Shown here in pieces: positions 8,540 through 48,552 of a stretch of DNA of 64,000 nt. Each line of letters opens with the position of its first letter. The stretch's first letter is position 1. The DNA lies in contig CAWKAS010000002.1 in NCBI GenBank assembly GCA_963847655.1, positions 705,729 to 769,728 of the forward strand, read 5' to 3'. The position numbers were made by a program, and so were the translations under genes. This DNA is from an uncultured Acidobacteriota bacterium (GTDB taxonomy: Bacteria > Acidobacteriota > Vicinamibacteria > Fen-336). The notes under the pieces are model-generated. The model searched no databases and was not told where the DNA came from. It saw only the letters and a list, made by a program, of their open reading frames with translations.

Positions 8540-9610
<1,071 letters not shown>

Positions 9611-9647
9611 TCGGTCGCCGACCCCCCGGAGGATCCCGGGCTTTCTC

Positions 9648-9689: not shown

Positions 9690-9724
9690 CCGCATACGGT
9701 AGAGAACAGGAGCGAAGGAAGGAC

Positions 9725-32044: not shown

Positions 32045-33043
32045 ATGAGCCAACCCGAGACGCAGGGCGGCCCCCAGGGCCGCCCACCCAAGCTCCTCGA
32101 TCGTGCGCGAGCCACGCTCCGCGCACGCGACTACAGCCCCGCCACCGAGAAGAGCTACCTGGGCTGGATCCGACGCTTCCTCGCCTTCCACCGGTTCCGT
32201 CGTCCCGAAGAGATGGGAGCCCCCGAGATCACCGAGTTTGTGTCCTATCTCGCCACCGAGCGCGAGGTCGGCGCCTCCACCCAGAACCAGGCCCTGGCGG
32301 GTCTGCTGTTCCTCTATCGCGACGTCCTGGAACTCGAGGTCGCCGGACTCGACGGCGTGGTTCGTGCCAAGCGCCCCCAGCACCTGCCGCTGGTCCTCAC
32401 GCGGGACGAGGTCAACACCGTCCTGGCCCGGATGGAGGGCGTGCCCCGCCTGATGGCCAGCCTCCTGTACGCGTCCGGCCTGAGGGTGACCGAGTGCGCC
32501 TGCCTCCGCGTCAAGGACCTGGACTTCGCCCGCGGCGAGGTCGTCGTTCGGAACGGGAAGGGCTCCAGGGACCGCGTGACCGTCCTTCCCCGAGGCCTGA
32601 TGGAGCCCCTCCACCAACACCTCGGACGCATCCGGAGACAACACCAGACCGACCTCGCCAACGGGGCCGGCAGCGTGGGCTTGCCCTACGCCCTCGCTGA
32701 GAAGTACCCCAACGCCCACCGCGAGTGGCCCTGGCAGTGGTTCTTCCCGGCCAGGAGCGTCAAGCGTGACCGCAAGACCGGCCGTTGGCAGCGCTCCCAC
32801 GTCCACGTCTCCGTGGTCCAACGGGAGTTCGCTTTCGCCGTCCGGGCCACCGGCCTGAGCAAGCCCGCCACCCCGCACACCCTGCGCCACTCCTTCGCCA
32901 CCCACCTCCTCGAGGACGGATACGACATCCGCACCATCCAGGAGCTCCTGGGACACCGTGACGTGGCCACCACGATGATCTACACTCACGTCCTGAACCG
33001 CGGCGGGCGCGGCGTGAGGAGCCCGTTCGATGTCAAGGCCTGA
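32045..33043 (+). CDS. intI: integron integrase IntI
   Basis: A tyrosine-recombinase fold carrying the IntI-specific additional domain (…ALAEKYPNAHREWPWQWFFPARSVKRDRKTGRWQRSHVH…), plus R…HxxR…Y (HTLRHSFATHLL…IYTH). A GGGGAGGA RBS is present. Confidence 0.9.
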   Translation: MSQPETQGGPQGRPPKLLDRARATLRARDYSPATEKSYLGWIRRFLAFHRFRRPEEMGAPEITEFVSYLATEREVGASTQNQALAGLLFLYRDVLELEVAGLDGVVRAKRPQHLPLVLTRDEVNTVLARMEGVPRLMASLLYASGLRVTECACLRVKDLDFARGEVVVRNGKGSRDRVTVLPRGLMEPLHQHLGRIRRQHQTDLANGAGSVGLPYALAEKYPNAHREWPWQWFFPARSVKRDRKTGRWQRSHVHVSVVQREFAFAVRATGLSKPATPHTLRHSFATHLLEDGYDIRTIQELLGHRDVATTMIYTHVLNRGGRGVRSPFDVKA

Positions 33044-33732: not shown

Positions 33733-33796
33733 AGATGCTCAAGGATCGCTCTCGCGTCATCAATGTGCGCTTCGCAGGTGATCCTCGCTGTTCGGC
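33694..33796 (+). repeat. attC site 1
   Basis: GCCGAAC…GATGCACCAG…TTGAAGATGC…CATCAATGTGCGC…GCAGGTGATC…GTTCGGC. Confidence 0.8.
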
Positions 33797-33839
33797 GGAC
33801 TTCGCAGCCATCTAGGGCCTCTCGTTTCTCCGGAGACAC

Positions 33840-34259: not shown

Positions 34260-34271
34260 TGCCAATGCGCC

Positions 34272-34375
34272 GCCGAACAACGGGATGCACCAGTCGGGGC
34301 GCTGGGTGTGAAGATGCCCCACGACGACCTTAACTTCATCAATGTGCGCCCCGCAGGTGATCCCGACTGTTATGC
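34272..34375 (+). repeat. attC site 2
   Basis: GCCGAAC…GTTATGC; same family. Confidence 0.8.
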
Positions 34376-34396
34376 GGACCTGACCCGGACCAGCCG

Positions 34397-34975
34397 ATGA
34401 CTGACGGCCAGTTTGCGGACCTGTTCTCCTTCTTGCGGGTCATCCCGCTAGCCGGGGTGGCTCTTCTCCTGGTCGAGTGGATTGCCTGGCTGGCGTTTCT
34501 CCCCGTCCCCTATCGGTGGGGCGTTCCGTATCTTCAGCGAACCTTGCAGGGCGCCAGCCGCGCCCTCCCCGAGGGCCGAACGAACTCCTCGGACATCGTC
34601 TTGGTGAGCGCGCGAGATGGCGAGTGGCTGTTTCGCCCTCCCTACCATCTGTTCAAGATAGCGACACCCTTTCCTTTGCTCGGCCAAGTGCGTCAGGAGG
34701 CAGATCGGCTTGCCGTCGTGGGACGCCATCCGTTCGGCGGCTTGCTGTTCTTCGGCGCGGTTGCGGCCCAGCAGGTGCTGGTTGGACTAGCACCCCTTCT
34801 CGTGCCGGCTGCGGCGGAGCGGGGCACTGCCATCGACCTCGCTGCGGTCGGCGTGGGCTTCTTCGTCCTGTTGTTCTTCTACGGCGGATCCTTGGCCCTT
34901 GAACGACACCGCCTTCTCAAAGCCGTCGCGGAAATAGCCAGACTGGCGGGCACCGAGGACCAGCGTGCCGCATAA
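34397..34975 (+). CDS. cassette 3: hypothetical membrane protein
   Basis: The 192-aa product has multiple hydrophobic helices. Its TAA stop lies inside the attC3 R'' core. Confidence 0.45.
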   Translation: MTDGQFADLFSFLRVIPLAGVALLLVEWIAWLAFLPVPYRWGVPYLQRTLQGASRALPEGRTNSSDIVLVSARDGEWLFRPPYHLFKIATPFPLLGQVRQEADRLAVVGRHPFGGLLFFGAVAAQQVLVGLAPLLVPAAAERGTAIDLAAVGVGFFVLLFFYGGSLALERHRLLKAVAEIARLAGTEDQRAA

Positions 34976-35073
34976 CGAGGCGATGCACCAGTCGGCGCGC
35001 TGGGTTTGAAGATGCCCCACGACGCCCCTAGCTTCATCAATGTGCGCGCCGCAGGTGATCGCGCCTGTTCGGC
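34970..35073 (+). repeat. attC site 3
   Basis: GCATAAC…GTTCGGC. Confidence 0.75.
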
Positions 35074-35095
35074 CGACAGAGTGTGAGGCGCAAGC

Positions 35096-35647
35096 GTGAA
35101 CGTGGCGAGATGGGTGCTTCTCGTCCTAGCCGCGGGCGGGACGTTCGTCCTTTCACTGACGGGGCTCCTTCTCATTCTTGGGCTCCTAGACTGGTTGCCA
35201 CCCGAGCTGCCCGACGAGGTCCTGCCGTGGTTTGGACTGTGTGTCATCGCTGTGCCCCTTGCTGCGGCTGCGTGGACGGCCCGTCGCTTGACGACGCGGT
35301 GGCGCTCCCCAGTTCCCCGTGGGGGCCGTTGGCGAAGGCCACTTCTGTGGGCCACAGCCGTTGCGTACATGGTGACTGCCTTCGTTGGCACACCGGCGGT
35401 GCTGAGCGAGCAGACAGCATGGGCGGTGTCGGAGTACAAGAGAAAGAAGGAGTCGGGCTCTCGCCGAGTGTGGGACGCTCATCCATACATCAGGAGCCAC
35501 ATGGCTGTTCCGGTAGCCCCCCTACTCATCGTCAACTACCATGAATACGTCATCGATGGGCTCTATGGTTTCGGTGGTTTCGAGCTCACCCTCTGGTATG
35601 TCTTCGGTGTGAAGTCAGTGGTCGCCGTGCCACTGTGGGTGTCGTAG
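35096..35647 (+). CDS. cassette 4: hypothetical membrane protein
   Basis: The 183-aa product has a GTG start and is hydrophobic. Confidence 0.45.
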   Translation: MNVARWVLLVLAAGGTFVLSLTGLLLILGLLDWLPPELPDEVLPWFGLCVIAVPLAAAAWTARRLTTRWRSPVPRGGRWRRPLLWATAVAYMVTAFVGTPAVLSEQTAWAVSEYKRKKESGSRRVWDAHPYIRSHMAVPVAPLLIVNYHEYVIDGLYGFGGFELTLWYVFGVKSVVAVPLWVS

Positions 35648-35657
35648 GCAGCGTGCG

Positions 35658-35761
35658 GCCGAACGAGGCGATGCAGCAGTCGAGGCGCTGAAGTTGAAGA
35701 TGCTCCACGACGCGTCTATCGTCATCAATGTGCGCCTCGCAGCTGATCGCTGCTGTTCTGC
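35658..35761 (+). repeat. attC site 4
   Basis: GCCGAAC…GTTCTGC. Confidence 0.8.
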
Positions 35762-35776
35762 GGACCTCGTTGGCAG

Positions 35777-36205
35777 ATGGCTATAAGAGTTGCACGACTC
35801 GTCGTCCTGGTTGCCGGCCTTGCGGCAATCATTGCAATCGTAGCGACGAGTCTTGACCAGAACGCGTACTTCTTCTATCGCCATCAGGATCGTAGCCAAT
35901 GGGAGTATCCAACCGGTGGGGTGGCGTTCCTTGTAGTCATGACCGCACTCGAGACAGCGATTGCCTACGCCGTGTTCGCCATCAGGGCGCGCGGGCGAGT
36001 TTGGATGCGGGCTCTTGGCGGTCTCGCGCTGCTGATGCCGTGGAATGTTGTCGCGAGCCAGTTCGTCGTGCATGCCCCTGGCTTCTGGCTGCTGCATCTC
36101 CTGTGGCTCTGGCTTCTGATAGCGATCCTTGCACTCGCGACCTTGATCTCGGGTACTGTCCACCTCTACTCTTGGCGCCGGGCGAGGGGTACTGTCGATG
36201 CGTGA
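35777..36205 (+). CDS. cassette 5: hypothetical membrane protein
   Basis: The 142-aa product has four predicted TM helices. Confidence 0.45.
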   Translation: MAIRVARLVVLVAGLAAIIAIVATSLDQNAYFFYRHQDRSQWEYPTGGVAFLVVMTALETAIAYAVFAIRARGRVWMRALGGLALLMPWNVVASQFVVHAPGFWLLHLLWLWLLIAILALATLISGTVHLYSWRRARGTVDA

Positions 36206-36211
36206 CCGGCC

Positions 36212-36315
36212 GCAGAACGAGGCGATGCACCAGTCGGCGCGCTGGAGTTGAGGGTGCTCCACGACGCCCCCAACTTCATCCATGTGCGCGCCGCAGGTGA
36301 TCGCGGCTGTTCGGC
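36212..36315 (+). repeat. attC site 5
   Basis: GCAGAAC…GTTCGGC. Confidence 0.75.
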
Positions 36316-36382
36316 GGACCCCGCGGGGGGCTGCAACCAGACCATTTGATGGTCGTGACGAACCGCTCGAAAGGAGGGGCCT

Positions 36383-36778
36383 ATGACCCGCTGGCTGGGT
36401 AGGTACTCAGACTTGACGTACGCTGTCATGCGCGTGGTTGTTGGACTTCTCTTCGCATGCCACGGAGCGCAGAAGCTCTTCGGCGTTCTCGGAGGAGAGA
36501 GTCAACTGTCTAACCCCATGATGCTTGCCGCTGGGGCTATCGAGTTCACTGGCGGACTTCTGGTGGCGGTCGGACTGTGGGCCGGTTACGCAGCGTTCAT
36601 CTCAAGTGGGCAGATGGCGGTCGCGTATTTCATGGTGCACGCTTCTGGCGGGTTCTGGCCTATCGTCAACAAGGGTGAGCTTGCCGTTCTCTACTGTTTC
36701 GTCTTTCTGTTCATCGCTTCCAGAGGGTCGGGTAGCTGGAGTGTCGACGGCATGGTGAGCAAGAAGAATCCCTCCTGA
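36383..36778 (+). CDS. cassette 6: DoxX-family membrane protein
   Basis: The 131-aa product has an AAGGAGG RBS. It is identical to the copy at 38167. Confidence 0.6.
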   Translation: MTRWLGRYSDLTYAVMRVVVGLLFACHGAQKLFGVLGGESQLSNPMMLAAGAIEFTGGLLVAVGLWAGYAAFISSGQMAVAYFMVHASGGFWPIVNKGELAVLYCFVFLFIASRGSGSWSVDGMVSKKNPS

Positions 36779-36808
36779 GGCCCATGGCACACGCCGGATG
36801 AGGCAGCC

Positions 36809-36912
36809 GCCGAACAAGGGGATGCACCAGTCGGGGCGCTGGGTTTGAAGATCCTCCACGATGAGCTTAGCTTCATCAATGTGCGCCCCGCAGGTGATCC
36901 CGACTGTTCGAC
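36809..36912 (+). repeat. attC site 6
   Basis: GCCGAAC…GTTCGAC; identical to attC9. Confidence 0.8.
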
Positions 36913-37079
36913 GGACACGAGGCGGGACGGGGCATGACCCAGGTCCACGTTCTCAGACTGGCCATCGTCGCTGCTGTCTTGGCCTCCTCTGCCATCGCAG
37001 CCGGTGCCCGCACGTGTGCAGTGTGGCCCTTTCGCACGTTTCAGGAACGGCTCGCTGGCCTTTCAACCGAGTCCTCGTC

Positions 37080-37484
37080 GTGCGGGTCCTGGAGCAGCAC
37101 TTCCTGCCCTTCTACGAGGGTCGTATCTGCTATCGGCTAGATGTGGAGCTCCTAGAGGACATCAATGGGATAGAGCTACGGCCGGTGGTGCGGATCGTGT
37201 CTGACGAGCCGTTCGCAGTGGTGGGGCTAGAGGGCGAGTATGATGCGTTTCCTGAGGGAACCGAATGGGCCCTGCTAGTGGGCAGGATCCCCGCCGCGGG
37301 CCTGCTCGAGCATTCAGGCGACTGGGGTGACGACGTCACGATGATCGACTACTACTACTCGCCTTGCCGCGGTGACTCAATCCAGTTGGTGACACCCGAA
37401 GACCACACGACAGGAGTGTTGGCCGCGGTGCGAGCCGAGTGGCGTGCCCGCATCGAGCGCGCCATGAAGCGTCATGCCGAGTAG
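37080..37484 (+). CDS. cassette 7: hypothetical protein, start uncertain (possible frameshift; a signal-peptide-like ORF at 36934..37140 lies in another frame)
   Basis: …VLEQHFLPFYEGRICYRLDVELLEDINGIEL… is protein-like only from ~37060. The upstream part of track ORF 36861 lies inside attC6. Confidence 0.3.
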   Translation: MRVLEQHFLPFYEGRICYRLDVELLEDINGIELRPVVRIVSDEPFAVVGLEGEYDAFPEGTEWALLVGRIPAAGLLEHSGDWGDDVTMIDYYYSPCRGDSIQLVTPEDHTTGVLAAVRAEWRARIERAMKRHAE

Positions 37485-37492
37485 CAGCAGCC

Positions 37493-37595
37493 GTCGAACG
37501 AAGCGATGCACCAGCCAGGGCGCTGAGTTGAAGACACTCCACGACGACCCCAGCTTCACCAATGTGCGCCCTGCAGGTGATCGCAGCTGTTGGAC
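37493..37595 (+). repeat. attC site 7
   Basis: GTCGAAC…GTTGGAC. Confidence 0.7.
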
Positions 37596-37609
37596 GGACT
37601 GAGGCAGGA

Positions 37610-37990
37610 GTGACACGAAGCACACTTTTCCTGGTCGCGGTCTTGACAATGGCTTGTGCCTCTTCGCCGCGCCAGCGGGCGGCCGCTGCAAACGCGGAGA
37701 CCCAGGGCGACGTCGGCGATCCAGGGGTCTATCCTGAGTCGGTCACGCCATGCTTGGCCGCGATGACGGCGGTCGACGTCCCTGTGGAAGTCAACCTGAT
37801 GACCGCGACTGAGCAGGGTGAGAGCTGCGCGATATCAATCTGGTTCGAGACCGAGACCGATCTTGAGGCGTTTGTTCAGCACCGTGTCGCAGCGGGGCTT
37901 TCAGCAAAGTCGGTTCCGTTCAGGGGAACCTCCGGCGAAACAACGTGGATCCCACTGGAACTACAGGTGGGCGGCACCGTGGAGCATTAG
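37610..37990 (+). CDS. cassette 8: hypothetical secreted/lipoprotein
   Basis: The GTG start follows a GGAGGCAGGAG RBS. The product begins VTRSTLFLVAVLTMACASS…. Confidence 0.4.
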   Translation: MTRSTLFLVAVLTMACASSPRQRAAAANAETQGDVGDPGVYPESVTPCLAAMTAVDVPVEVNLMTATEQGESCAISIWFETETDLEAFVQHRVAAGLSAKSVPFRGTSGETTWIPLELQVGGTVEH

Positions 37991-37996
37991 GGGGCC

Positions 37997-38099
37997 GTCC
38001 AACGATGGGATGCACCAGACGGGGCGCTGCGTTGAAGATGCTCCACGACGACCCTAGCTTCATCAATGTGCGCCCCGCAGGTGATCCCGGCTGTTCGGC
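37997..38099 (+). repeat. attC site 8
   Basis: GTCCAAC…GTTCGGC. Confidence 0.75.
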
Positions 38100-38166
38100 G
38101 GACCCCGCGGGGGGCTGCAACCAGACCATTTGATGGTCATGACGAACCGCTCGAAAGGAGGGGCCT

Positions 38167-38562
38167 ATGACCCGCTGGCTGGGTAGGTACTCAGACTTGA
38201 CGTACGCTGTCATGCGCGTGGTTGTTGGACTTCTCTTCGCATGCCACGGAGCGCAGAAGCTCTTCGGCGTTCTCGGAGGAGAGAGTCAACTGTCTAACCC
38301 CATGATGCTTGCCGCTGGGGCTATCGAGTTCACTGGCGGACTTCTGGTGGCGGTCGGACTGTGGGCCGGTTACGCAGCGTTCATCTCAAGTGGGCAGATG
38401 GCGGTCGCGTATTTCATGGTGCACGCTTCTGGCGGGTTCTGGCCTATCGTCAACAAGGGTGAGCTTGCCGTTCTCTACTGTTTCGTCTTTCTGTTCATCG
38501 CTTCCAGAGGGTCGGGTAGCTGGAGTGTCGACGGCATGGTGAGCAAGAAGAATCCCTCCTGA
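38167..38562 (+). CDS. cassette 9: DoxX-family membrane protein (exact duplicate of cassette 6)
   Basis: The 131-aa product is identical, and the whole cassette 38100-38696 matches 36316-36912. Confidence 0.6.
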   Translation: MTRWLGRYSDLTYAVMRVVVGLLFACHGAQKLFGVLGGESQLSNPMMLAAGAIEFTGGLLVAVGLWAGYAAFISSGQMAVAYFMVHASGGFWPIVNKGELAVLYCFVFLFIASRGSGSWSVDGMVSKKNPS

Positions 38563-38592
38563 GGCCCATGGCACACGCCGGATGAGGCAGCC

Positions 38593-38696
38593 GCCGAACA
38601 AGGGGATGCACCAGTCGGGGCGCTGGGTTTGAAGATCCTCCACGATGAGCTTAGCTTCATCAATGTGCGCCCCGCAGGTGATCCCGACTGTTCGAC
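38593..38696 (+). repeat. attC site 9
   Basis: GCCGAAC…GTTCGAC. Confidence 0.8.
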
Positions 38697-38736
38697 AGAC
38701 TGCGTCGTTGATCAACGACAGGCTGCGTAGAACCTC

Positions 38737-39192
38737 ATGGCGTCAGGAGACAGAAGCCGCACCTGGTTCCCCGAGATGATTGAGGAGCTTCGGGCATCCT
38801 GGGACTCCGGCATGTCCTGCGAGCAGATGATCGCGCTCCGTGATCGTCTCCAAGAGATGCTTGAAGGCATCCTCACATCCCGCAACGTTGTGCCGGCAAC
38901 CATGCGCTGCCCATGCTGCGGCACCGTGGGGCCAGGGGGCCCGCCGGTCGTGTCCGTCCGGGCGATGTTGCTGTCCTTGCGACGCTTCGAGATCGAGTCT
39001 CCGGAGGCCGTGCGGAGTCTCGAGAAGATGTGGGCGGACCATCGGAAGGCCCACGATCTAGACCTATACGGCAAGCCTGCCGTGTCTGCGGGAAAGGGTT
39101 CATCCCTGGCGTCAGGCCAGACGGTACGGGAAGTAGGTACGATGGGCCGGAGCGTGAACAAGGCGATGCACCAGCCGAAGCGCTGGGATTGA
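38737..39192 (+). CDS. cassette 10: hypothetical protein with a CPCCG motif
   Basis: 151 aa. The C-terminus is encoded by attC10. Confidence 0.4.
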   Translation: MASGDRSRTWFPEMIEELRASWDSGMSCEQMIALRDRLQEMLEGILTSRNVVPATMRCPCCGTVGPGGPPVVSVRAMLLSLRRFEIESPEAVRSLEKMWADHRKAHDLDLYGKPAVSAGKGSSLASGQTVREVGTMGRSVNKAMHQPKRWD

Positions 39193-39256
39193 AGATGCCC
39201 CACGATCCTCTGTTCTTCATCAATGTGCGCTTCGCAGGTTATCGCTGCTGTTGTGC
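39153..39256 (+). repeat. attC site 10
   Basis: CGTGAAC…GTTGTGC. Confidence 0.7.
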
Positions 39257-39311
39257 GGACTCATTGAAGGTGTTGCGTACTAGCCGTGTTCCTTCGGCCC
39301 GTAGGTGACCA

Positions 39312-39503
39312 GTGGGATTACTGCTACTGCCTCTCCTCATGCTTCAGGGTGGACCCCCTTCTCATTCGAACGACGAGCCTCCAGCGATCGCCGCAACCGT
39401 CCGACATGTAGCGGCCGAGCTCGCGCAGTCACTGTGCAAGAAGGAGGCATGCGATGTGTCGATTGCCGGCGGTGTCCCGCGGGCGACCTGCTACATCTCC
39501 TAG
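39312..39503 (+). CDS. cassette 11: candidate small secreted protein (weak; the cassette may be ORF-less)
   Basis: MGLLLLPLLMLQGG… (63 aa). Alternative ORFs exist on both strands, and none is convincing. Confidence 0.2.
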   Translation: MGLLLLPLLMLQGGPPSHSNDEPPAIAATVRHVAAELAQSLCKKEACDVSIAGGVPRATCYIS

Positions 39504-39762
39504 CCAAGATTCCAGGGGTGTCGCCACTTCCCGCAGCCGAGGCAGACCGTCAGCTGGGCGCCACGGTGATCGATGTCTTCGCTCGATAGAGTTCGACGCG
39601 CCGGACGAGGCTGAGGTTGGAGTCGACGTCCTCCGTAGATGGGGACATTCTCTTCAGCAAGTGTTGGTATCGAGTCGCACGCCGGGAGGGCGACTGGCGA
39701 GTCAATGACGGTGTTCCGCCCTGTGCGATCATGTGAATCGCACGTGGCCATCTGGGGACGCC

Positions 39763-39866
39763 GCACAACGAGGGGATGCACCAGACAAGGCGCTGGTTGT
39801 GAAGATGCTCTACGACGCCTCTTTCGTCATCAATGTGCGCCTTGCAGGTGATCCCGTCTGTTCTGC
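39763..39866 (+). repeat. attC site 11
   Basis: GCACAAC…GTTCTGC. Confidence 0.75.
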
Positions 39867-39913
39867 GGACCTTGTCGAAAAACCGCGCTAGAATCGTCAC
39901 GTAAGGAGCCCAT

Positions 39914-40120
39914 GTGCGGTTCAAGGTCGAGTTCGAGCAGGAAGAGGATGGCCGGTGGATCGCCGAAGTGCCTGATCTGCCTGGCGTTTTGGCCTATGGT
40001 GCGGACCGTGCGGAGGCCCAAGCCAAGGTTCAGGCCCTGGCCCTGCGGGTCGTGGCCGAGCGGCTTGAACATGGCGAGGCTGGCCCGGAGCTCTTGGACA
40101 TCTCCTTTCAAGCTGCGTGA
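39914..40120 (+). CDS. hicB: cassette 12: HicB-family antitoxin
   Basis: MRFKVEFEQEEDGRWIAEVPDLPGVLAYGADRAEA… The GTG start follows a TAAGGAG RBS. Confidence 0.7.
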   Translation: MRFKVEFEQEEDGRWIAEVPDLPGVLAYGADRAEAQAKVQALALRVVAERLEHGEAGPELLDISFQAA

Positions 40121-40329
40121 GCAACTGGCCCAGCACCCGGGCGCCGCAGGTTCTTGCCGCGCTTCAGCGTATCGGGTGGTCGATCAAGCGGCAGTCGGGG
40201 TCCCACAAGACTCTCGTTCGTGAGGGCTGGCCTTCCTACACTTGGCCGTTCCACGACCGCGAGGAGCTCGGCCCGAGAATGCTTGCGCGCGTGGCGAAGC
40301 GAACTGGGCTCACACCGGAGGATCTCTAG
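40117..40329 (+). CDS. hicA: cassette 12: HicA mRNA-interferase toxin
   Basis: …ALQRIGWSIKRQSGSHKTL… (YcfA/HicA). It overlaps the hicB stop. Confidence 0.7.
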   Translation: MSNWPSTRAPQVLAALQRIGWSIKRQSGSHKTLVREGWPSYTWPFHDREELGPRMLARVAKRTGLTPEDL

Positions 40330-40687
40330 CCGGTCGTGGGAGCCGCAGAACAAACAGCAGTTCTTAACAAACAGCAGTTCTTCCTGAGTCGCCGTCGGAG
40401 TAGAAGTCGACGCTGAGGCGGACGTGGGCGATTCTGGAAGAGCTGAGTTGAACCGAGGCCGCGCTGCTGGCCCTATGTACTTTGAATTGCGCCGGGGTGC
40501 GTGCGGGAACGCGGAAGTCCGGGCCTTGGCTGGGTAGTCCTGGCCCGGAGAATGGGGGCGAGACCCCGGACGGACCTGACTCGGCCGACGAGTCCACCGC
40601 GGTACGCGCCACGAGACAAGCCAGCCCCTGGAGCGGCGGCGCCACGTTCGGCACCGGGTCGGCGGGACGAAGGGAGGGAGCCCACCA

Positions 40688-41821
40688 TCACATCCTCAGG
40701 GGCGGCAGGACGTCGAGGACGACGAGCCGGCCGATCTGGCACCGGGGACACAGGAGCGGGTCCTTTCCGAAGAGACGGCGGAAGGTGGTGTCCCAGCTTT
40801 CCTTTGGGAGCTTGGGAATCTGTGGCCCTCCCAGCTGGCGTCGACAGTGCGCCAGGTCTTCTCTTCGGCGCGAGGCCAGCAGCCCGTAGTGTCGGATGCG
40901 GACGAAGCGGTCGGGCAGGACGTGCTGGAGGAAGAGGCGAGCGAACTTGTCTCCGCTTAGGGACTCGAGCTTGGTCTTGCCACCGTCCTGACGGTCCTTG
41001 TAGCGGAAGACCACCGTATGTCCGTCGTAGCGGATGATGCGGGAGTTCGAGATCGCGATGCGGTGGACGTAGCGGGAGAGGTACTCGACCACGTGGGAGG
41101 GCCCTTCGAGAGGCGGCTCGATGCGGATTCCCCACGTCTTGTGCCCGGCCCGGGCGATGAGGTCGCGGGCCTCGTCCTCGGGGAGGGGCAGCTCGTTGGC
41201 CTCGATGGCGTCTCTCAGCTTGGCGAGCAGCTTTCCCTTGAAGACGGGCTGGAGCTTGCCCAGAGGCAGGAAGAAGTGAGTGCCGGAGGAGATCCACCGC
41301 AGCGCGCGCCAGACGCCGGCGGGCACGAGGCAGTGGATGTGGGGATGGAAGCGCAGCTTCTGGGTCCAGGTGTGGAGCACGGCGGTGAAGCCGATGTCGC
41401 CCTGGAGGTGGCTCCTTCCCACCTCGAGCAGCGTCTCGGAGACGGCCTGGAAGAGGAGATTCAGGCACCGCTCGGGGGCGAGGCGGAACAGGCGGTGCAA
41501 CTCCCCGGGGATGGTGAAGACGATCTGGTAGTAGGGCACGGGGAGGGCCAGCGCGCGCTGGTGTTCGGCCCACAGGGCCTGCTGAAGGCCCTGGCATTTG
41601 GGGCAGTGGCGGTTGCGGCAGGAGTTGTAGGCCCGGCGGACGAGGCCGCAGGTGGAGCACACCTCCCGGTGCCCGCCGAGACGGACGGTGCGGCAGTTAA
41701 CGATCGCGCTGGCGGCGCGGGCCTGGGCCGAGCTCAGCCTGAGGCCGAAGGCGTGGTCGCGCAGGACGTCCGCGACCTCGGAGCCGTCGCAGGCCCGCGG
41801 GGGTGGGTGCGGATGACGCAC
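40688..41821 (-). CDS. tnpA: IS91-family transposase (rolling-circle, HUH Y2)
   Basis: A zinc-finger N-terminus (CSTCG…CRNRHCPKCQ), an HUH motif (HPHIHCLV) and a YLSRYVHRIAISNSRI Y2 motif are present. Confidence 0.85.
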   Translation of the reverse strand: MRHPHPPPRACDGSEVADVLRDHAFGLRLSSAQARAASAIVNCRTVRLGGHREVCSTCGLVRRAYNSCRNRHCPKCQGLQQALWAEHQRALALPVPYYQIVFTIPGELHRLFRLAPERCLNLLFQAVSETLLEVGRSHLQGDIGFTAVLHTWTQKLRFHPHIHCLVPAGVWRALRWISSGTHFFLPLGKLQPVFKGKLLAKLRDAIEANELPLPEDEARDLIARAGHKTWGIRIEPPLEGPSHVVEYLSRYVHRIAISNSRIIRYDGHTVVFRYKDRQDGGKTKLESLSGDKFARLFLQHVLPDRFVRIRHYGLLASRRREDLAHCRRQLGGPQIPKLPKESWDTTFRRLFGKDPLLCPRCQIGRLVVLDVLPPLRM

Positions 41822-41824
41822 CGT

Positions 41825-42673
41825 CTACTTGTTCGGGACGCGGTCGAGAGGGCTGGTGGTCTGGTGGATGTTGGTCTGGGCCACGTGGGTGTAGACCTGG
41901 GTGGAGGTCAAGGAGCGGTGGCCCAGGAGGGACTGGATCAGGCGGATGTTGGTGCCGTCCTCGAGGAGATGGGTCGCGAAGGCGTGGCGCAGGGAGTGGA
42001 AGTAGACGTGCTTCTGGATGCCGGCCTTCAGCGCCGCGTGCTTGAAGACCTTCTCGGCGGTGGACGAGGACAGCGCCGTGCCCCTGGGGCGTCCCTCGAA
42101 CAGCCACCGCACCGGGCGGTACTGCCGCCAGTACTCCCGCAGGGTCCCGAGCAGGACGGGTGAGAGCATCACGTAGCGGTCCTTGCGGCCCTTGCCCTGC
42201 TCGACCCGGATCATCATGCGCTTCGAGTCGATGTCGGCGGGGACAAGCCCCAGGGTCTCGCCGAGGCGCAGGCCCCCGCTGTAGCTGGTCATGAGGAGAG
42301 CGCGGTGCTTGAGGTTGGTGCAGGCGTCGAGGATGGCCGTCACCTCCTCGGGGGCGAGGATCTCGGGAAGGACCCGCCGCTTCTTCTGGTACGGCATCCG
42401 CTTGATGTCCCAGTCCCGGTGGAGGCACTCGCGGTAGAAGAAGCGGAGCGCGCAGGTGGTCTGGTTGAAGGTGGAGAAGCCCACCTTGCGTTCGTTCGTC
42501 AAGTGGCGCTGATAGCCCTGGATGTCCTCCGGCGTCACCTGGTCGAGAGGTTTGGCCACGAACCTCCCGAACAGGCGCAGCATCCAGACGTAGGTCTCCT
42601 GGGTCCGGGGGCTGCGGTCGCGGGCGGCGAGCGTCTCGGCGAAAAGCGTCTCGAAGGGGTTCTGGAACTCCAT
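41825..42673 (-). CDS. tyrosine recombinase (phage-integrase family) associated with IS91-family elements
   Basis: R…HSLRHAFATHLL…VYTHV catalytic residues are present. Confidence 0.8.
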   Translation of the reverse strand: MEFQNPFETLFAETLAARDRSPRTQETYVWMLRLFGRFVAKPLDQVTPEDIQGYQRHLTNERKVGFSTFNQTTCALRFFYRECLHRDWDIKRMPYQKKRRVLPEILAPEEVTAILDACTNLKHRALLMTSYSGGLRLGETLGLVPADIDSKRMMIRVEQGKGRKDRYVMLSPVLLGTLREYWRQYRPVRWLFEGRPRGTALSSSTAEKVFKHAALKAGIQKHVYFHSLRHAFATHLLEDGTNIRLIQSLLGHRSLTSTQVYTHVAQTNIHQTTSPLDRVPNK

Positions 42674-42777
42674 GTCTTCCTCCTTTGGGGGTTGTCGCGA
42701 GAGCGCGACCTGGAGGAAGCTATGGCAGTCTAATCAACCGCTCCAGGCGGACGTCGTTCCGCCGCGTAGCGGCTTCG

Positions 42778-42890
42778 GTTCAACAAGGCGATGCAGCAGA
42801 CGAAGCGCTGGAGTTGAAGATGCCCTACGACGCCTTGGCGTCATCAATGTGCGCTTTGCAGCTTATTGCCGCTGTTCGACAGAGGTAAGG
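42778..42890 (+). repeat. attC site 12 (belongs to the hicAB cassette; displaced by the IS)
   Basis: GTTCAAC…GTTCGAC. Confidence 0.75.
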
Positions 42891-42913
42891 TAGAAACCGA
42901 GGCAGGGCGGTCT

Positions 42914-43177
42914 ATGCCGCGGAAACGATGGCCGACTTGGTGGGACTGGGAGCTCGAACTGAGCCCCCACGTCCTCAAGCGCATGGTGGATCGGGGCTTC
43001 TCAGAGGTAGAGTTGCGTGCCATGCTTGAGGGAGCCTCGAAGTGGCGTCGCGACGTGGCCCCGGGTCGTTGGGTAATTGAGACCCGGCATAAGAAGCGGC
43101 CTTGGGAAGTCATTGTGGAGCCTGACGTTGAGATGGAGCTTCTGGTGGTAATCACGGCGTACCCTGTCGAGGCCTAG
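42914..43177 (+). CDS. cassette 13: DUF4258-like toxin-family protein
   Basis: MPRKRWPTWWDWELELSPHVLKRMVDRGFSEVELRAML…. Confidence 0.5.
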   Translation: MPRKRWPTWWDWELELSPHVLKRMVDRGFSEVELRAMLEGASKWRRDVAPGRWVIETRHKKRPWEVIVEPDVEMELLVVITAYPVEA

Positions 43178-43181
43178 CAGA

Positions 43182-43451
43182 ATGAGTGAGTCCTATCTCG
43201 AGGTCACCTACCGCCACGGCCGTCCCCTGGCCGCGTACTACTACCTGCCCCGGCGACCCAGGGATCGGAGCCACCGCACTCGCCGGTCCGCAGCGGGACT
43301 CTTGGTCGACTACACCCGTGGGGGGCGACCAATCGGGATCGAGATCACGGCGCCCACCAAGGTCTCCCTGGCCGCGCTCAACCGTCTTCTCAACGAGTTG
43401 GGGCTCCCTCGGGTCACTCGCACAGAGATTTCCCCGCTCTTTGCCGCGTGA
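43182..43451 (+). CDS. cassette 13: DUF2283-like (putative antitoxin partner)
   Basis: …LLVDYTRGGRPIGIEITAPTKV…. Confidence 0.5.
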   Translation: MSESYLEVTYRHGRPLAAYYYLPRRPRDRSHRTRRSAAGLLVDYTRGGRPIGIEITAPTKVSLAALNRLLNELGLPRVTRTEISPLFAA

Positions 43452-43463
43452 CTGGGGCGCCCT

Positions 43464-43567
43464 GTCGAACGAGGGCTTGCACCAGACAAAGCGCCGGAAT
43501 TGAAGATGGTCCGAGACGCCCCTGGCATCATTGATGTGCGCTTTGCAGGTGAAGCCTGCTGTTATGC
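43464..43567 (+). repeat. attC site 13
   Basis: GTCGAAC…GTTATGC. Confidence 0.75.
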
Positions 43568-43586
43568 GAACTGAAGGAGGCATCGC

Positions 43587-44105
43587 TTGAGATCGACTCT
43601 CTTTGCCAGCGCTCTCCTCTGCGTCTTGTGTGTGGCCAGCTCCGCCGGTGCTGACCCGACAGATGGCAGTAGCTCCGTCTTCGCCGGCTTCCCGGGCATC
43701 GGGAAAGTTGTCGTCACCTCCACGCACGATGGCCTCCCTTCGGAGCGTCTTCGCGGCCGAATCGTGCGCCGCCTGGCGAATCACGGCCTGCTGGCGGATC
43801 CGCAGTCAACGGGTCGCGAAGCACAGCTGGTTGTCAAGGTCCATGCTGAGACGCTGCCCCAGGACCGCAGTGCGTGTAGCTACCACGCCTACACGGTGTC
43901 GGTCGCTGTCCGGGAGAGCGTTGAACTGACTCGCGAGCCTCACACGCGTCTTCTTGCCGTCACCTGGTCCGACCGCCAGTCTGTATCGCGCTTTGGCGGA
44001 GACTTGGCTGCGCGCACGGTACTGGGCGTAGTCGACACGAGCCTGAATCAGCTCATCGTGGAGGTTGAGACGGCGTGGCAGAGCGCATCAACGCAGGCAG
44101 AGTGA
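43587..44105 (+). CDS. cassette 14: hypothetical secreted protein
   Basis: The TTG start follows a GAAGGAGG RBS. Signal peptide MRSTLFASALLCVLCVASSAGA. Confidence 0.45.
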   Translation: MRSTLFASALLCVLCVASSAGADPTDGSSSVFAGFPGIGKVVVTSTHDGLPSERLRGRIVRRLANHGLLADPQSTGREAQLVVKVHAETLPQDRSACSYHAYTVSVAVRESVELTREPHTRLLAVTWSDRQSVSRFGGDLAARTVLGVVDTSLNQLIVEVETAWQSASTQAE

Positions 44106-44129
44106 AGAAACGCTCGTCAATGAGGGTGT

Positions 44130-44233
44130 CGCATAACAAGCCGATGAACCAGTCGAAGCGCTGGGGTTGAAGGTGCGCCACGACGACCCTGGCTTCATCA
44201 ATGTGCGCCTCGCAGGTGAAGCCCACTGTTCGG
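44130..44233 (+). repeat. attC site 14
   Basis: GCATAAC…GTTCGGC. Confidence 0.75.
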
Positions 44234-44299
44234 CGGACACCTGAGGGATTCAGGCACCTTCCACTTGACGTGCGTATATACGGTGTCTAGACTTACATC

Positions 44300-44539
44300 A
44301 TGAAGCGAAAGAGGGCGAAGCTCTTCCAGAACGGGGGCAGTCAGGCCGTCCGCCTGCCAAAGGAATGCCGCTTCGTCGCCCAAGGGGAGGTGCTGGTTCA
44401 CCGGGAGGGGCGTCGAGTCATCCTGGAGCCTACAGATGAGTGGTCGGAGGAGTTCCGCGCCTGCCTGGGCTCTTGGTCGGGCGACATTCCTCGACCCAAG
44501 CAGCAGGAACTCGGAGACCTTCAGAATCCATTCGACTGA
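44300..44539 (+). CDS. vapB: cassette 15: AbrB/MazE-type antitoxin (VapB-like)
   Basis: MKRKRAKLFQNGGSQAVRLPKECRF…. Confidence 0.65.
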   Translation: MKRKRAKLFQNGGSQAVRLPKECRFVAQGEVLVHREGRRVILEPTDEWSEEFRACLGSWSGDIPRPKQQELGDLQNPFD

Positions 44540-44934
44540 TGCCCCGATTCATGCTTGACGCTGACACTGTCAGCTACGCCATCCGCGGCCAGGGGCAGGT
44601 CGGGAAGCGGTTGCTCGAACACCAACCATCGGAGCTCTGTATTAGCTCGATCACCTGGGCCGAGCTTCGTTTCGGAGCCGAGGCCAAGCGCTCCCCGAAA
44701 CTCCGGCGCGCGATTCAGGCCTTCGCCAAGGACGTCGCAGTTGTCCCCTTCGACCAGGTGGCGGCCGACAAGTTCGCGGCGGTGGCAGCGTCGCCAGCTC
44801 GGCGTGGAAAGCCGATTGGGTCCTTCGATACCCTCGTGGCGGCGCATGCGCTTTCACTGGGCATGACTGTAGTGACGAACAACACGAAGCACTTTGGGCG
44901 GGTGCCCAGCTTGAACGTGGAGAATTGGGCCTGA
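44538..44934 (+). CDS. vapC: cassette 15: PIN-domain toxin VapC
   Basis: MPRFMLDADTVSYAIRG…FDTLVAAHALSLGMTVVTNNTKHF. An ATGA overlap joins it to vapB. Confidence 0.7.
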
Positions 44935-44950
44935 GGCTGATGCAGCAGCC

Positions 44951-45053
44951 GCCGAACGAGGGGATGCACCAGACAGGGCGCTGAGTTGAAGATGCTCCAC
45001 GACGTCCTTAGCGTCATCTATGCGCGCCCTGCAGGTGATCCCACGTGTTCGGC
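44951..45053 (+). repeat. attC site 15
   Basis: GCCGAAC…GTTCGGC. Confidence 0.8.
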
Positions 45054-45090
45054 GGACCTCTGGTCGAAGAGCCGGGTGTAGAATCTGGGC

Positions 45091-45279
45091 ATGGCCACCG
45101 CCAAGGACACCGTCCGGGACCTCTTGGAGCAGATGCCCGACGACTGCTCCCTTGAGGACGTCCAGTACCAGCTCTACCTGCGCCAGAAGCTCGAAAGGAG
45201 CCGCTTGGCCGCAGCCGAGGGTCGAGTCGTTTCCCACGCCGAGGTCAAAGAGCGGCTGTCGAAGTGGGCCGGAAAGTAG
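45091..45279 (+). CDS. cassette 16: small antitoxin (ParD/RelB-like)
   Basis: 62 aa. It overlaps the start of the downstream toxin. Confidence 0.45.
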   Translation: MATAKDTVRDLLEQMPDDCSLEDVQYQLYLRQKLERSRLAAAEGRVVSHAEVKERLSKWAGK

Positions 45280-45605
45280 TCTGGACGGACCCAGCGGCAG
45301 AAGACGTCGTCGAGACGGTCGAGTTCATCGCGAAGGACTCGCCTTCCTTTGCAGCCACCTTGGCGCAGCGAATCTGCGACGCCGGAGACTCTCTGGAGGT
45401 GTTCAGCGAGCGGGGCCGGCCTTACCCTGATCCTGCATATCCTGGCTTTCGGGAGTTGCTGGTGGGCCCCTACCGCCTGGTGTACGAAGTGGAAGACGAA
45501 CGGGTCGTCATTCACGGGGTGTTCCATGGCAGTCGTCAGGTTGAACATGCCGTTCGGAAACGTGCCGCCCCGCGAGGTTCAAGGGGCCGCCGAACAAGGC
45601 GATGA
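45264..45605 (+). CDS. cassette 16: RelE/ParE-family toxin
   Basis: …ERGRPYPDPAYPGFRELLVGPYRLVYEVEDERVVIHGVFHGSR… (ParE-like). Confidence 0.6.
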   Translation: MGRKVVWTDPAAEDVVETVEFIAKDSPSFAATLAQRICDAGDSLEVFSERGRPYPDPAYPGFRELLVGPYRLVYEVEDERVVIHGVFHGSRQVEHAVRKRAAPRGSRGRRTRR

Positions 45606-45687
45606 ACCAGCCAAAGCGCGGAGGAAGATGTCCTAGATTGGTATGCTTCATTGAGTCGCGCTTTGGAGGTTATCGCCGCTGTTATGT
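45589..45687 (+). repeat. attC site 16 (divergent member)
   Basis: GCCGAAC…GTTATGT. Confidence 0.6.
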
Positions 45688-45713
45688 GGACCCTGGAGAG
45701 AGGGGTAGACTAG

Positions 45714-46324: not shown

Positions 46325-46686
46325 CGGGGATCCGCGAGCCACATAACAAACAGCAGTTCTTCCTAACAAACAGAAGTTCTTCCTGAGTCGCCCTCCGAGT
46401 AGGCGCTGCCGCTGAGCGGGCGTGTGGCGATTCTGGAAGAGCTGAGTTGAACCGAGGCCGCGGTGCTGAACCTATGTACTCTGGATCGGGCCGTGTTGCG
46501 TGTGGGAACAGCGGGGTCGGGAGCCGAACGACGTGTGTGGGACGCGAGGAAGCTCGCCAGGGGGCAAAGCGCGGTGATGTCTGAGACCGACTTCACGGCG
46601 CGAGAGGACCGAGAACGAACCTCCCCCTGAGGCGGCGACGCCGTTTCGGGCATCGAAAGGCCGGGGCGGAGAGGGGCGAGTCGCCG

Positions 46687-47820
46687 TCACAGCCTCAGGG
46701 GCGGCAACACCTCGCGGGCGACGAAGCGTCCGACCTGGCAGCGGGGACACAGGAGGGGGTCACTGCCGAGGAGCCGTCGGAAGGCGACGTCCCAGGCCTC
46801 TTTGGGGACCTTGGGCGGTGTTCGTCCACCGAGCTGCTCGCGACAGCGTTCGAGATCGGACCTGCGACGGGAAGCGAGGAGGCCGCAGTGCCAAATGCGG
46901 ACGAAGCGGGGGGGCAGGACATGCTGGAGGAAGAGGCGGGCGAACTTGTCACCGCTGAGGGGAGCGAGCTTGGTCTTTTCGCCGTCCTGGCGGTCCTTGT
47001 AGCGGAAGACGACGGTCTGCCCGTCGTAGTGGACGATGCGGTAGTTGGAGATGGCGATGCGATGGACGTAGCGGGAGAGGTAGTCGATCACGTGTGAGGG
47101 GCCCTCGAGGGGCGGCTCGATACGGATGCCCCACGTCTTGCGTCCGGCCCGTGCGAGGAGGTCCCGGGAGTCGCGCTCGGGAAGAGGCAGCTCGTCGGCG
47201 TCGACGGCGGCCCTGAGCTTGGCGAGGAGCTTGCCCTTGAAGACGGGCTGGAGCTCCTTCAGGGGGAGGAAGAAGCGGCTGCCGGTGGCGACCCACCGGA
47301 GGGCCTTCCAGACCCCGGCGGGGACGAGGCAGTGGATGTGGGGGTGGAAGCGGAGCTTCTGGGTCCAGGTGTGCAAGACGGCGGTGAAGCCGATATCGCC
47401 TTTGAGGTGGCTGCGTCCCAGCTCCAGGAGGGTCTCCGAGACGGCCTGAAACAGCAGGTTCAGGCACCGCTCGGGGGCGAGCCGAAACAGCCGATGCAGC
47501 TCCCCGGGGATGGTGAAGACGATCTGGTAGTAGGGCACGGGGAGGGCCAGGGTCCTCTGGCGCTCGGCCCACAGGGCCTGTTGGAGCCCCTGGCACTTGG
47601 GGCAGTGGCGGTTGCGGCAGGAGTTGTAGGCCCGGCGGACGAGGCCGCAGACGGAGCACACCTCACGGTGCCCGCCGAGGCGGGCGGTGCGGCAGCGGAC
47701 GAGGGCGCTGGCGGCCCGGGCCTGGGCTCGCCTCAGCCTGAGGCCGGAGGCGTGGTCGCGCAGAATGTCCGCCACTTCGGGGCCGTCCCGGTCCCGAGGT
47801 GGCGGGTGCGGGTGACGCAC
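46687..47820 (-). CDS. tnpA: IS91-family transposase, copy 2
   Basis: The 377-aa product is colinear with 40688..41821. Confidence 0.85.
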   Translation of the reverse strand: MRHPHPPPRDRDGPEVADILRDHASGLRLRRAQARAASALVRCRTARLGGHREVCSVCGLVRRAYNSCRNRHCPKCQGLQQALWAERQRTLALPVPYYQIVFTIPGELHRLFRLAPERCLNLLFQAVSETLLELGRSHLKGDIGFTAVLHTWTQKLRFHPHIHCLVPAGVWKALRWVATGSRFFLPLKELQPVFKGKLLAKLRAAVDADELPLPERDSRDLLARAGRKTWGIRIEPPLEGPSHVIDYLSRYVHRIAISNYRIVHYDGQTVVFRYKDRQDGEKTKLAPLSGDKFARLFLQHVLPPRFVRIWHCGLLASRRRSDLERCREQLGGRTPPKVPKEAWDVAFRRLLGSDPLLCPRCQVGRFVAREVLPPLRL

Positions 47821-47823
47821 CGC

Positions 47824-48250
47824 CTACTGGCTCTTCGGGGCACGGTCGAGGGGGCTCGTGGTCTGGTGGATGTTGGTCTGGGCCACGTGGGTGTAGACCT
47901 GGGTGGAGGTCAAGGACCGTTGGCCCAGCAGCGCCTGGATCAGGCGGATGTTGGTGCCGTCCTCGAGGAGGTGGGTGGCGAAGGCGTGGCGCAGGGAGTG
48001 GAAGTAGACGTGCTTCTGGATGCCGGCCTTGAGCGCGGCGTGCTTGAAGACCTTCTCGGCGGTGGATGAAGACAGCGCCGTGCCCCTGGGGCGTCCCTCG
48101 AACAGCCACCGCACGGGGCGGTACTGCCTCCAGTACTCCCGCAGGGTCTCGAGCAGGACGGGTGAGAGCATCACGTAGCGGTCCTTGCGGCCCTTGCCCT
48201 GCTCGACCCGGATCATCATCCGCTTGGAGTCGATGTCGCTGGGCACGAGA
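47824..48250 (-). pseudogene. tyrosine recombinase, N-terminally truncated copy
   Basis: It matches the C-terminal ~140 aa of 41825..42673 (…DIDSKRMMIRVEQGKGRKDRYVML…). The upstream region is unrelated. Confidence 0.6.
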
Positions 48251-48552
48251 CCCAGGGGCAACAGCAAGGGGCGGGGCGTCATCCGACGTGAGTCCAAGGC
48301 ACAGGCGAGGCGCGGTTCGGTGTTTCGGGTTTGGCCGCGCGGCGGCGGGCGGCCCTGTTCCCCCTGTGGTTTGTGGGGATCGCTTCCGTCGCGAACGGTG
48401 TCGCGCACCCTTCGTCTTCGCTCCTCACGGCAGGCTGCCTCCCCGGACTTGTCACGTCTCCCGTCATTGGCGTCCTCGGAATCCTGCTCTTGCGGCGTCT
48501 GCCCTGGTCACGGATGGCGTAGACTCGTCTCCGGGAGCTTCCTGACCGTCGC

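Follow-up and report, generated by a model that had tools for sequence, protein, structure and literature searches.

The window, a stretch of 64,000 nucleotides from an uncultured Acidobacteriota bacterium, contains an integron in whose cassette array two copies of an insertion sequence (IS) of the IS91 family are lodged. Copy 1 carries a tyrosine recombinase gene (int) and a transposase gene (tnpA) between two ends termed terIS and oriIS. As judged from the insertion junctions, the clade to which both copies belong is site- and orientation-specific for one point in the R'' core of attC sites. We consider it probable that this R''-specific int-tnpA element, with its attC-like ends, is copied out by the transposase TnpA and then integrates at GTT/AAC, most likely by the action of the recombinase Int. 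The features of copy 1 and of the cassette that it interrupts are as follows.

40349..42781, minus strand: IS copy 1, complete, 2,433 bp; ends from copy 2 and from relatives whose ends are defined by copy pairs
41825..42673, minus strand: int, Xer/IntI-like tyrosine recombinase, 282 aa (Pfam Phage_integrase and Phage_int_SAM_4)
40688..41821, minus strand: tnpA, Y2 HUH transposase, 377 aa (NCBIfam and Pfam)
42759..42781, minus strand: terIS, GAAC-CGA-AGCCGC-TAC-GCGGCGG, a single match in the window
40383..40462, minus strand: oriIS hairpin, preceded on the coding strand by GCGGCCTCGGTTCAAC (40447-40462)
40349..40382, minus strand: oriIS terminus, a tandem 2 x 17 nt AAGAACTGCTGTTTGTT, comprising the 3' half of the ori stem and the terminal CTGTTTGTT
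39914..40120 and 40117..40329, plus strand: hicB and hicA, the cassette genes whose attC is interrupted (open reading frames, Pfam)
40340..40348, plus strand: outer R'' half of the hicBA attC, GAGCCGCAG, left on the hicA side of the insertion
42782..42885, plus strand: rest of the hicBA attC, from the AAC of R'' to R' (GTTCGAC), by alignment, consensus fold and 106.9 bits with R1, the covariance model built from the attCs of the array

The position of copy 1 can be read against the other attC sites of the same array. Fifteen attCs were initially located by similarity to the sequence following copy 1, and their alignment yields a consensus hairpin of 28 pairs, 10 of them with compensatory changes. 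A scan of the window with R1 returned 16 attCs, of which the last spans 45585-45692. To the right of copy 1 the sequence matches the attC consensus from AAC onward and is preceded by GTTC in place of CCG or CAG, and to its left GAGCCGCAG fits nGCCGCCG or GCCGCAG, the consensus found ahead of AAC in the 15 remaining attCs. Since the right flank is attC consensus from AAC and the left flank is the sequence usually found before AAC, the hicBA attC is interrupted within the R'' core, with GCCGCAG on one side and AAC on the other, by an element lying antisense to the cassettes. The original prediction had placed the element between hicA and a displaced attC that resumed at 42778, directly after a GTTC target. 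Instead, the element sits inside R'', the outer half of which remains beside hicA, and homology to attC resumes at 42782 with AAC. The GTTC at 42778-42781 is the cleavage tetranucleotide of terIS, and in relatives TTAGTTC likewise stands beside a GC palindrome. Further, the target tetranucleotide of the IS91 family abuts oriIS (PMC13181058); the oriIS-side flanks here are GCAG (copy 1) and ACAT (copy 2), with neither GTTC nor CTTG, and among the junctions of 61 relatives GTTC adjoins oriIS in none except inside the tandem dimer L039. Because AAC(AA) stands at both junctions, the boundaries of copy 1 are ambiguous by 3-5 nt. Relatives similarly have GTT, CGTT or TTGA at both junctions, and the repeated AAC or GTT represents either one IS copy and one target copy with no duplication, or a 3-bp repeat.

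Copy 2 lies further along the array and comprises the following features.

46336..46344, plus strand: outer R'' half of the attC of the last cassette, GAGCCACAT, adjoining copy 2
46345..48257, minus strand: IS copy 2, truncated (gene predictions, profiles and DNA comparison)
46345-46384, minus strand: oriIS of copy 2 with a 20-nt terminal tandem duplication (motif matches)
46687..47820, minus strand: tnpA of copy 2, intact (NF033538, 370 bits)
47824..48257, minus strand: int remnant of copy 2, the C-terminal ~144 aa only (homology to copy 1)

The left flank of copy 2, GAGCCACAT, compares with gccgcat^AAC (^ marks a junction) at the attCs at 34974 and 44135, and both window copies begin directly after the RYYY of an R'' core. 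The terIS, the 5' part of int and the remainder of the attC are deleted in copy 2, and R1 found no attC in the window beyond it; the array is thus capped by a truncated second copy, as had been claimed. In the last attC, copy 2 took the position that copy 1 holds in its own, and a later deletion removed the terIS end of copy 2 along with what remained of the last attC. The same position recurs in eight relatives from other metagenome samples, with TnpA 61-84% identical to that of the window (L161, L162, L163, L167, L168/169, L171, L173 and L178). In each of them terIS abuts the 5' end of an attC (..GTT^GAACCG), which R1 matches on the strand opposite to the IS with E values of 4e-26 to 4e-3. 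Further attCs are present in L161, L171 and L178, and small antisense genes, some encoding toxin-antitoxin proteins, in L161, L163, L171 and L178. Taken with the two window copies, these make 10 independent insertions for the closest clade (TnpA identity of 61% or more). All 10 are antisense and placed at R'', which upholds the repeated targeting of attC sites put forward earlier. The single orientation has a two-sided binomial probability of ~0.002, a figure in which the identical position is not counted. Two other loci, L172 and L175, lie at similar hairpins that R1 does not score.

The insertion need not inactivate the attC. Following the insertion of copy 1, the GTTC of the IS stands in place of the outer half of R''. 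The complement of R' is GTCGAAC, and the resulting GTTCAAC agrees with it at 5 of 7 positions, as many as the original GCAGAAC did. As the two match equally, the interrupted attC may stay usable, in which case hicBA and the IS may form one composite cassette.

By protein profiles and ends, both copies are IS91-family insertion sequences of an int-tnpA subgroup. TnpA of copy 1 matches the NCBIfam model NF033538 'IS91 family transposase' at 383 bits (E 1e-114, cut-off 125), together with the Pfam domains Y2_Tnp (E 1e-54) and Zn_Tnp_IS91 (E 9e-27), the latter N-terminal and zinc-binding. Its translation shows HPHIH and YLSRYVHRIAISNSRI, and YLSRYVHR is visible. The gene beside tnpA carries the two recombinase domains listed above, and its stop lies 3 nt ahead of the tnpA start, so that both the family assignment and the linkage to a tyrosine recombinase in the original prediction are confirmed. 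The linkage was followed in 160 loci sampled by scanning genome and metagenome contigs with TnpA, and 17 further loci (L161-L164, L167-L179) were reached via closer protein relatives and their contigs. The contig scans returned relatives at 47% identity or less only; the closest relatives, 61-88% identical, are unnamed metagenome proteins, and an exact-protein look-up gave no record for the window TnpA or the 100% identical P0001. Across many phyla, tnpA is immediately preceded by int on its own strand in 147 of the 160 relatives, most of the remaining 13 being cut by a contig end. The distance from the int stop to the tnpA start is mostly -4 to +12 nt.

The ends of the family were set by within-genome copy pairs (L019, the L039 dimer, L043/L045/L072 and L008/L069) and by family motifs. 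On the coding strand, the int-side end reads (G)TT^GAAC-TAA-ACCGC-loop-GCGGT. The 3' side of tnpA carries, in order, a ..CCCATAG.. box, the motif GCGGYTNA-GTYCAAC, which repeats the int-side end in inverted orientation, then a long hairpin and finally the terminus C(T/C)NNN(C/T)(G/A)TT^. The terIS pattern (T)TGAAC-TAA-ACCGC..GCGGT is kept in 56 of 160 relatives, and the oriIS architecture of the window element is matched in 67 of 160. In the window, the int-side end on the coding strand is GAACCGAAGCCGCTACGCGGCGG (42781-42759); read on the plus strand it is a palindrome followed by GTTC, CCGCCGCGTAGCGGCTTCGGTTC^. On the other side, GCGGCCTCGGTTCAAC is the internal inverted repeat, an R''-like box, the stem of oriIS runs TCAGCTCTTCC...GGAAGAACTG and the terminus is CTGTTTGTT. 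The sequence ..GGAAGAACTG-CTGTTTGTT aligns with the family pattern stem-CTAWNCGTT and with the canonical ..TTTCCTATACGT, and the region of hairpin and box holds a 27-mer that is identical in copies 1 and 2. The oriIS terminus motif matches four times in the window. None of 100 shuffles yielded the end motifs, which are thus not due to chance. As proposed with the original prediction, oriIS and terIS were defined by comparing the two copies and related IS91 members, which places the ends of copy 1 at 40349 and 42781. The comparison also settled the nature of the flank shared by the two copies, AACAAACAGCAGTTCTT, which could have been IS or cassette sequence: it belongs to the oriIS of the element, made of the 3' half of the hairpin and the conserved terminus, and is tandemly duplicated, an outcome in favour of the original prediction.

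The duplication of the oriIS terminus varies within the subgroup: the repeat unit is 17 nt long in copy 1, whereas copy 2 and L167 have 20 nt and the distant L011 has 23 nt; in other close relatives, L161 and L163 among them, the terminus is single-copy. Because duplicated elements occupy different sites, the duplication does not block movement.

The ends of the element bear a resemblance to attC when joined. Joining oriIS to terIS gives ..GTT^GAAC.., a junction seen directly in the dimer L039. The heptamer GTTGAAC conforms to GTTRRRY. Its complement, the internal GTTCAAC, conforms to RYYYAAC, and the long hairpin lies between the two. When the junction of the window element was reconstructed, its non-coding strand folded at -36.9 kcal/mol (z = -4.4) with an outer stem of 16 bp (GCGGCTTCGGTTCAAC / GTTGAACCGAGGCCGC). 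The joined single-stranded ends therefore have, in this model, the potential to fold into an attC-like hairpin closed by GTTCAAC and GTTGAAC. Further, the last base of the internal box and the first base of the terminal triplet are associated across relatives (C-G 38, T-A 9, C-A 8 and T-G 0; Fisher p = 4e-6), and the ATT-ending elements with a readable 5' flank (L029, L039, L081, L120 and L126) have TT or ATT there in 5 of 5 cases. Compensatory changes are also found between terIS and the internal repeat. Collectively, these comparisons show at the level of sequence that the target triplet, the terminal triplet of the IS and the internal box co-vary, target and terminal triplet being identical.

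The locus L039, from a Candidatus Kuenenia metagenome-assembled genome, is a perfect head-to-tail dimer (148-5417) with a shared 4-nt junction TTGA (CTATACATTGAAC), and L019 holds two copies 1.3 kb apart (3505-6058 and 7378-9931). Both arrangements could be products of rolling-circle run-on or insertions into the end of a sister copy. L081 is a contig of ~2.7 kb with wrap-around ends; together with the precise ter-ori junction of L039, it gives an indirect hint of a single-stranded circle.

The recombinase belongs to the Xer/IntI clade. Int shares 31% identity with the IntI of the resident integron, with a gap of 46 residues exactly at the additional domain of the latter. It matches the IntI model TIGR02249 in two stretches at 181 bits (cut-off 265) and falls under the NCBIfam cut-offs for XerA/IntI; the relatives of known structure that match it best are XerA, a XerC-like protein, IntI4 and XerD. 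The catalytic residues R, K, H, R, H and Y are invariant in 136 of 136 full-length members (H226 in 134), so Int is kept as an enzyme and not merely as a DNA-binding protein. The recombinase of the window element accordingly looks catalytically intact.

More distant relatives (38-47% TnpA identity) share the preference for GTT. Their 5' flank ends in GTT, with G in 33 of 52 and T in 45 of 52, and their 3' flank starts with A(T/G)G. Three of them, L020, L089 and L111, occupy exact G^TT cassette boundaries within integrons in sense orientation. In L020, where intI is 52% identical to that of the window, the attC reads GGTCTAAC...GACGTT^IS^AGACC. In L089 and L111 the IS is followed by GTT^ATGCCGC, hicA-hicB and an attC with the R'' GCGGCATAAC, complementary to that start. 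The IS of L044 lies 1.4 kb downstream of an intI. Many other distant relatives are found at a hairpin ending in GTT, or with GTT within ~13 nt, and show no integron signs. Targeting of attC as a property of the whole subgroup was rejected on this ground, and the specialisation therefore belongs to the window clade and some other lineages only. Applied to the first 55 distant loci, R1 gave no attC match; as the model is specific to the array type, it may have missed sites.

The proposed mechanism is that TnpA would nick at oriIS, rolling-circle replication would displace the non-coding strand up to terIS (GTTC), and TnpA would circularise the displaced strand, as in IS91. The predicted circle junction is ..CTGCTGTTTGTT^GAACCGAAGCC.. 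in single-stranded DNA of the non-coding strand. Int would then recombine the folded junction with the identical GTT/AAC core at the foot of the attC hairpin, through an exchange of one strand that is completed by replication, as in attC x attC or attC x attG recombination or in CTX-phage/Xer integration. The attribution of this last step to Int, acting at the shared GTT/AAC core, is made tentatively and is somewhat more open to doubt than the scheme as a whole. Recombination by IntI at attG requires only GWT, a rule that resembles the GTT target rule of the int-tnpA relatives. A broader and more doubtful proposal is that the int-tnpA subgroup constitutes a two-enzyme, self-mobilising 'cassette', in which an HUH enzyme would produce the copied-out circle, its ends would mimic attC and the recombinase would paste it into GTT cores, with one clade having specialised on the foot of R''. 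If true, it would form a mechanistic and possibly evolutionary bridge from rolling-circle transposons to the single-stranded DNA recombination of integrons and Xer.

Several points weigh against integration by Int at attC-like ends. The circles and the activity of Int are predicted for this element rather than observed, and Int is without the additional domain through which IntI reads the extrahelical bases of attC. R1 gives no match to the IS ends. The internal repeat is absent from the canonical elements that are without Int, a comparison that covers the two inspected, IS91 and an IS1294-like element, and co-variation of inverted repeats would be equally expected if one protein bound both ends as duplex DNA. 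Most distant relatives lie outside recognisable integrons, and an exact test for the complement of R'' upstream of the insertion was positive in L020 only, although the test is too strict, given that even the window attC has 2 mismatches in 4. The relatives are also not phylogenetically independent. Lastly, as AAC or GTT is present at both ends, the junctions would look alike after an HUH cut (GTTC^AAC or AAC^) and after a tyrosine-recombinase cut (AA^C), and canonical IS91 inserts with TnpA only, as a bottom-strand single-stranded circle beside a tetranucleotide resembling the terIS end (PMC13181058). TnpA might therefore perform every step here as well, recognising (N)AAC at the foot of a single-stranded hairpin that resembles oriIS. 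The attCs would then fit by chance of design, and Int would be an accessory protein, either a specificity or termination factor in the position of the IS91 Orf121, which is required for precise terIS cleavage (PMC13181058), or a resolvase of tandem copies, which do exist (L039) and would need resolving. The shared letters agree with this, since terIS ends in ..GTTCAAC and targets in ..NAAC, with 3-5 nt in common, and so do the non-integron targets that are hairpins with AAC or GTT at the foot (L010, L053, L080, L134, L149 and L154). The layout of guide box, hairpin, spacer and cleavage triplet also recalls the ends of IS200/IS605 elements. However, an accessory DNA-binding role leaves six invariant catalytic residues in 136 Int sequences unexplained, the GTTC or CTTG next to oriIS that IS91 requires for re-transposition is absent, and the internal repeat and long hairpin go with Int, not being seen in the two canonical elements. 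We regard transposition by TnpA alone as a serious but rather unlikely explanation.

Two further explanations assign the element to systems already familiar from integrons. It could be a passive cassette, consisting of two genes and an attC-like site and moved by the host IntI, which is encoded in the window (32045..33043). In L020, L089 and L111 the sense-oriented element takes up one cassette slot exactly, with G^TT at its bounds, and the 3' end of the element has a RYYYAAC-like box, a hairpin and GTT. This is nevertheless very improbable: the window clade is found in 10 of 10 cases at R'' in antisense and not at the R' cassette boundary, most relatives are outside recognisable integrons, the attC model does not recognise the element ends, and selection maintains two strand-transfer enzymes in the element itself. 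Still more remote is the arrangement originally described, in which a canonical IS91 or ISCR-like element follows a GTTC target on its 3' side, separates hicA from an intact attC and mobilises neighbouring sequence in the ISCR manner. The transposase is indeed of the IS91 family, and copy 2, having no terIS, could in principle run into flanking DNA. However, GTTC belongs to the terIS of the element, the oriIS flanks are GCAG and ACAT, the attC is split, and TnpA scores only 23.8 bits with NF052416 (ISCR_clade_Ia, cut-off 925). The ISCR assignment was rejected on this score, and the analogy drawn with ISCR elements does not extend to copy 1, which has a terIS.

The window element shares the basic organisation of the IS91 family: a Y2 HUH transposase with a zinc-binding domain, ends without classical inverted repeats, a terIS upstream of tnpA made of GTTC, ~3 nt and a GC-rich palindrome, and an oriIS terminus related to ..CCTATACGT. 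The family shows no obvious target duplication, with which one of the two readings of the window junctions would agree. In IS91, IS801 and IS1294, terIS is a palindrome next to the cleavage tetranucleotide, which is GTTC in IS801 and IS1294 (PMC13181058). Over the family as a whole this tetranucleotide is GTTC or CTCG. Two canonical elements taken from plasmids for comparison, IS91 (L165) and an IS1294-like element (L166), have a terIS layout like that of the window and oriIS termini reading ..TTCCTATCGAT^GAAC and ..TTTCCTATACGT^GAAC. However, the window TnpA is only ~25% identical to theirs. The window element further differs from the family in carrying a tyrosine recombinase rather than nothing or Orf121, in having an internal inverted copy of terIS and a long hairpin before the oriIS terminus, and in its target, which is GTT/AAC at the foot of a hairpin and not GTTC or CTTG next to oriIS. 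ISfinder and TnPedia list IS91 members with an upstream open reading frame of the phage-integrase type (ISAzo26, ISWz1, ISShvi3, ISSod25 and others), which have the same two-gene layout.

Other elements associated with integrons resemble the window clade in some respects. Insertion close to the attC 5' end, antisense to the array, is reported for IS1111-attC elements and group IIC-attC introns (PMC3001079), and the window clade has exactly this position and orientation. The machinery is unrelated: IS1111-attC elements, of the IS110 family, use a DEDD transposase and IIC-attC introns a ribozyme and reverse transcriptase, whereas the window element uses an HUH transposase and a tyrosine recombinase. 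Integron cassettes and IntI share with it the pair RYYYAAC and GTTRRRY at the joined ends, insertion at a GTT core, the cassette slots occupied by some relatives and the clade of the recombinase. They differ in that the element has its own transposase, an Int without the additional domain, an antisense position at R'' and ends unrecognised by R1. ISCR elements are similar in having an IS91-related HUH transposase and an association with integrons. ISCR1, however, lies beyond the integron 3'-conserved segment and not in attC sites. In one report, an IS91-family element that has an integrase gene upstream adjoins an attC (PMC9229058).

Full-text literature searches returned no description of attC targeting by an IS91-family clade, and none of a role for the linked recombinase, of attC-like joined ends or of co-variation between triplet and box. 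As far as found, the IS91 family and its members with an upstream integrase gene are thus already known, and the attC targeting of the clade, the attC-like ends and the co-variation are new. Integrons are the main gene-capture platforms of bacteria. To our knowledge, IS1111-attC elements and group IIC-attC introns are the only two kinds of mobile element known to home on attC; the window clade would be a third and unrelated kind. That it lands where those two do, and in the orientation that they adopt, would mark the 5' foot of attC as a general landing pad for elements that act on single-stranded DNA. Such an element can truncate cassette arrays, as with copy 2, or may fuse cassettes into composites, as with hicBA and the IS sharing one attC. 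Further, the question of why a widespread IS91 subgroup always carries a tyrosine recombinase with an intact active site becomes testable, and the predicted attC-like junction offers a concrete experimental substrate.

The two copies have diverged. DNA homology extends over 40685-42255 and 46684-48257 (86%) and over 40340-40514 and 46336-46514 (85%). At the protein level, where identity had been put at about 90%, TnpA is 83.6% and the Int remnant 96% identical. The ratio of nonsynonymous to synonymous substitution rates (Ka/Ks) of tnpA is 0.21 between the copies, by which measure the gene is under purifying selection. Identity between the copies climbs along the element, from 74-80% in oriIS and 44% in the spacer at 40537-40636 to 67-90% in tnpA and 91-97% in the int remnant, which could reflect different constraint or gene conversion. 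The Int remnant of copy 2 has LGQ where LGH is conserved. The ~300 bp from the breakpoint after CCCAGGG to the first chromosomal open reading frame (48258-48552) matched none of the sequences tested against them and contain no attC or terIS remnant. With oriIS and an intact tnpA, copy 2 could in principle run on into the chromosomal DNA at its right. Some relatives inside arrays are hit by, or adjoin, other IS of the IS21, IS3 and IS1595 types (L162 2543-5523, L171 191-1368 and L179 2470-3165).

The window has a G+C content of ~70%. Its intI (32045..33043) lies upstream of the cassette array (33690-45692) on the same strand as the cassettes and is not divergent from them. A co-oriented layout is also found in L044, whose IntI is 57% identical, and L020 has the classical divergent layout. 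The sixteenth attC (37489-37600), which R1 scored at 116.5 bits, had been overlooked by the similarity search. Within the array, ~700 bp comprising an attC, a cassette and its attC are duplicated with 97.7% identity (36216-36916 and 38001-38700). Rfam gave no known structured RNA in the region. In the interrupted cassette, the hicA product matches Pfam HicA_toxin (E 2e-12), and a UPF0150-like match (E 1.5e-4) falls under the cut-off of that model. Cassettes with hicA and hicB adjoin the IS in three unrelated arrays (window 39914-40329, L089 2512-3061 and L111 1405-2037), with gene order and orientation differing among them. Similarly, a DUF433/DUF5615-like gene pair, named from the translations alone, precedes copy 2 and also occurs in L044. 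The recurrence of both pairs beside the IS probably reflects the mere commonness of toxin-antitoxin cassettes.

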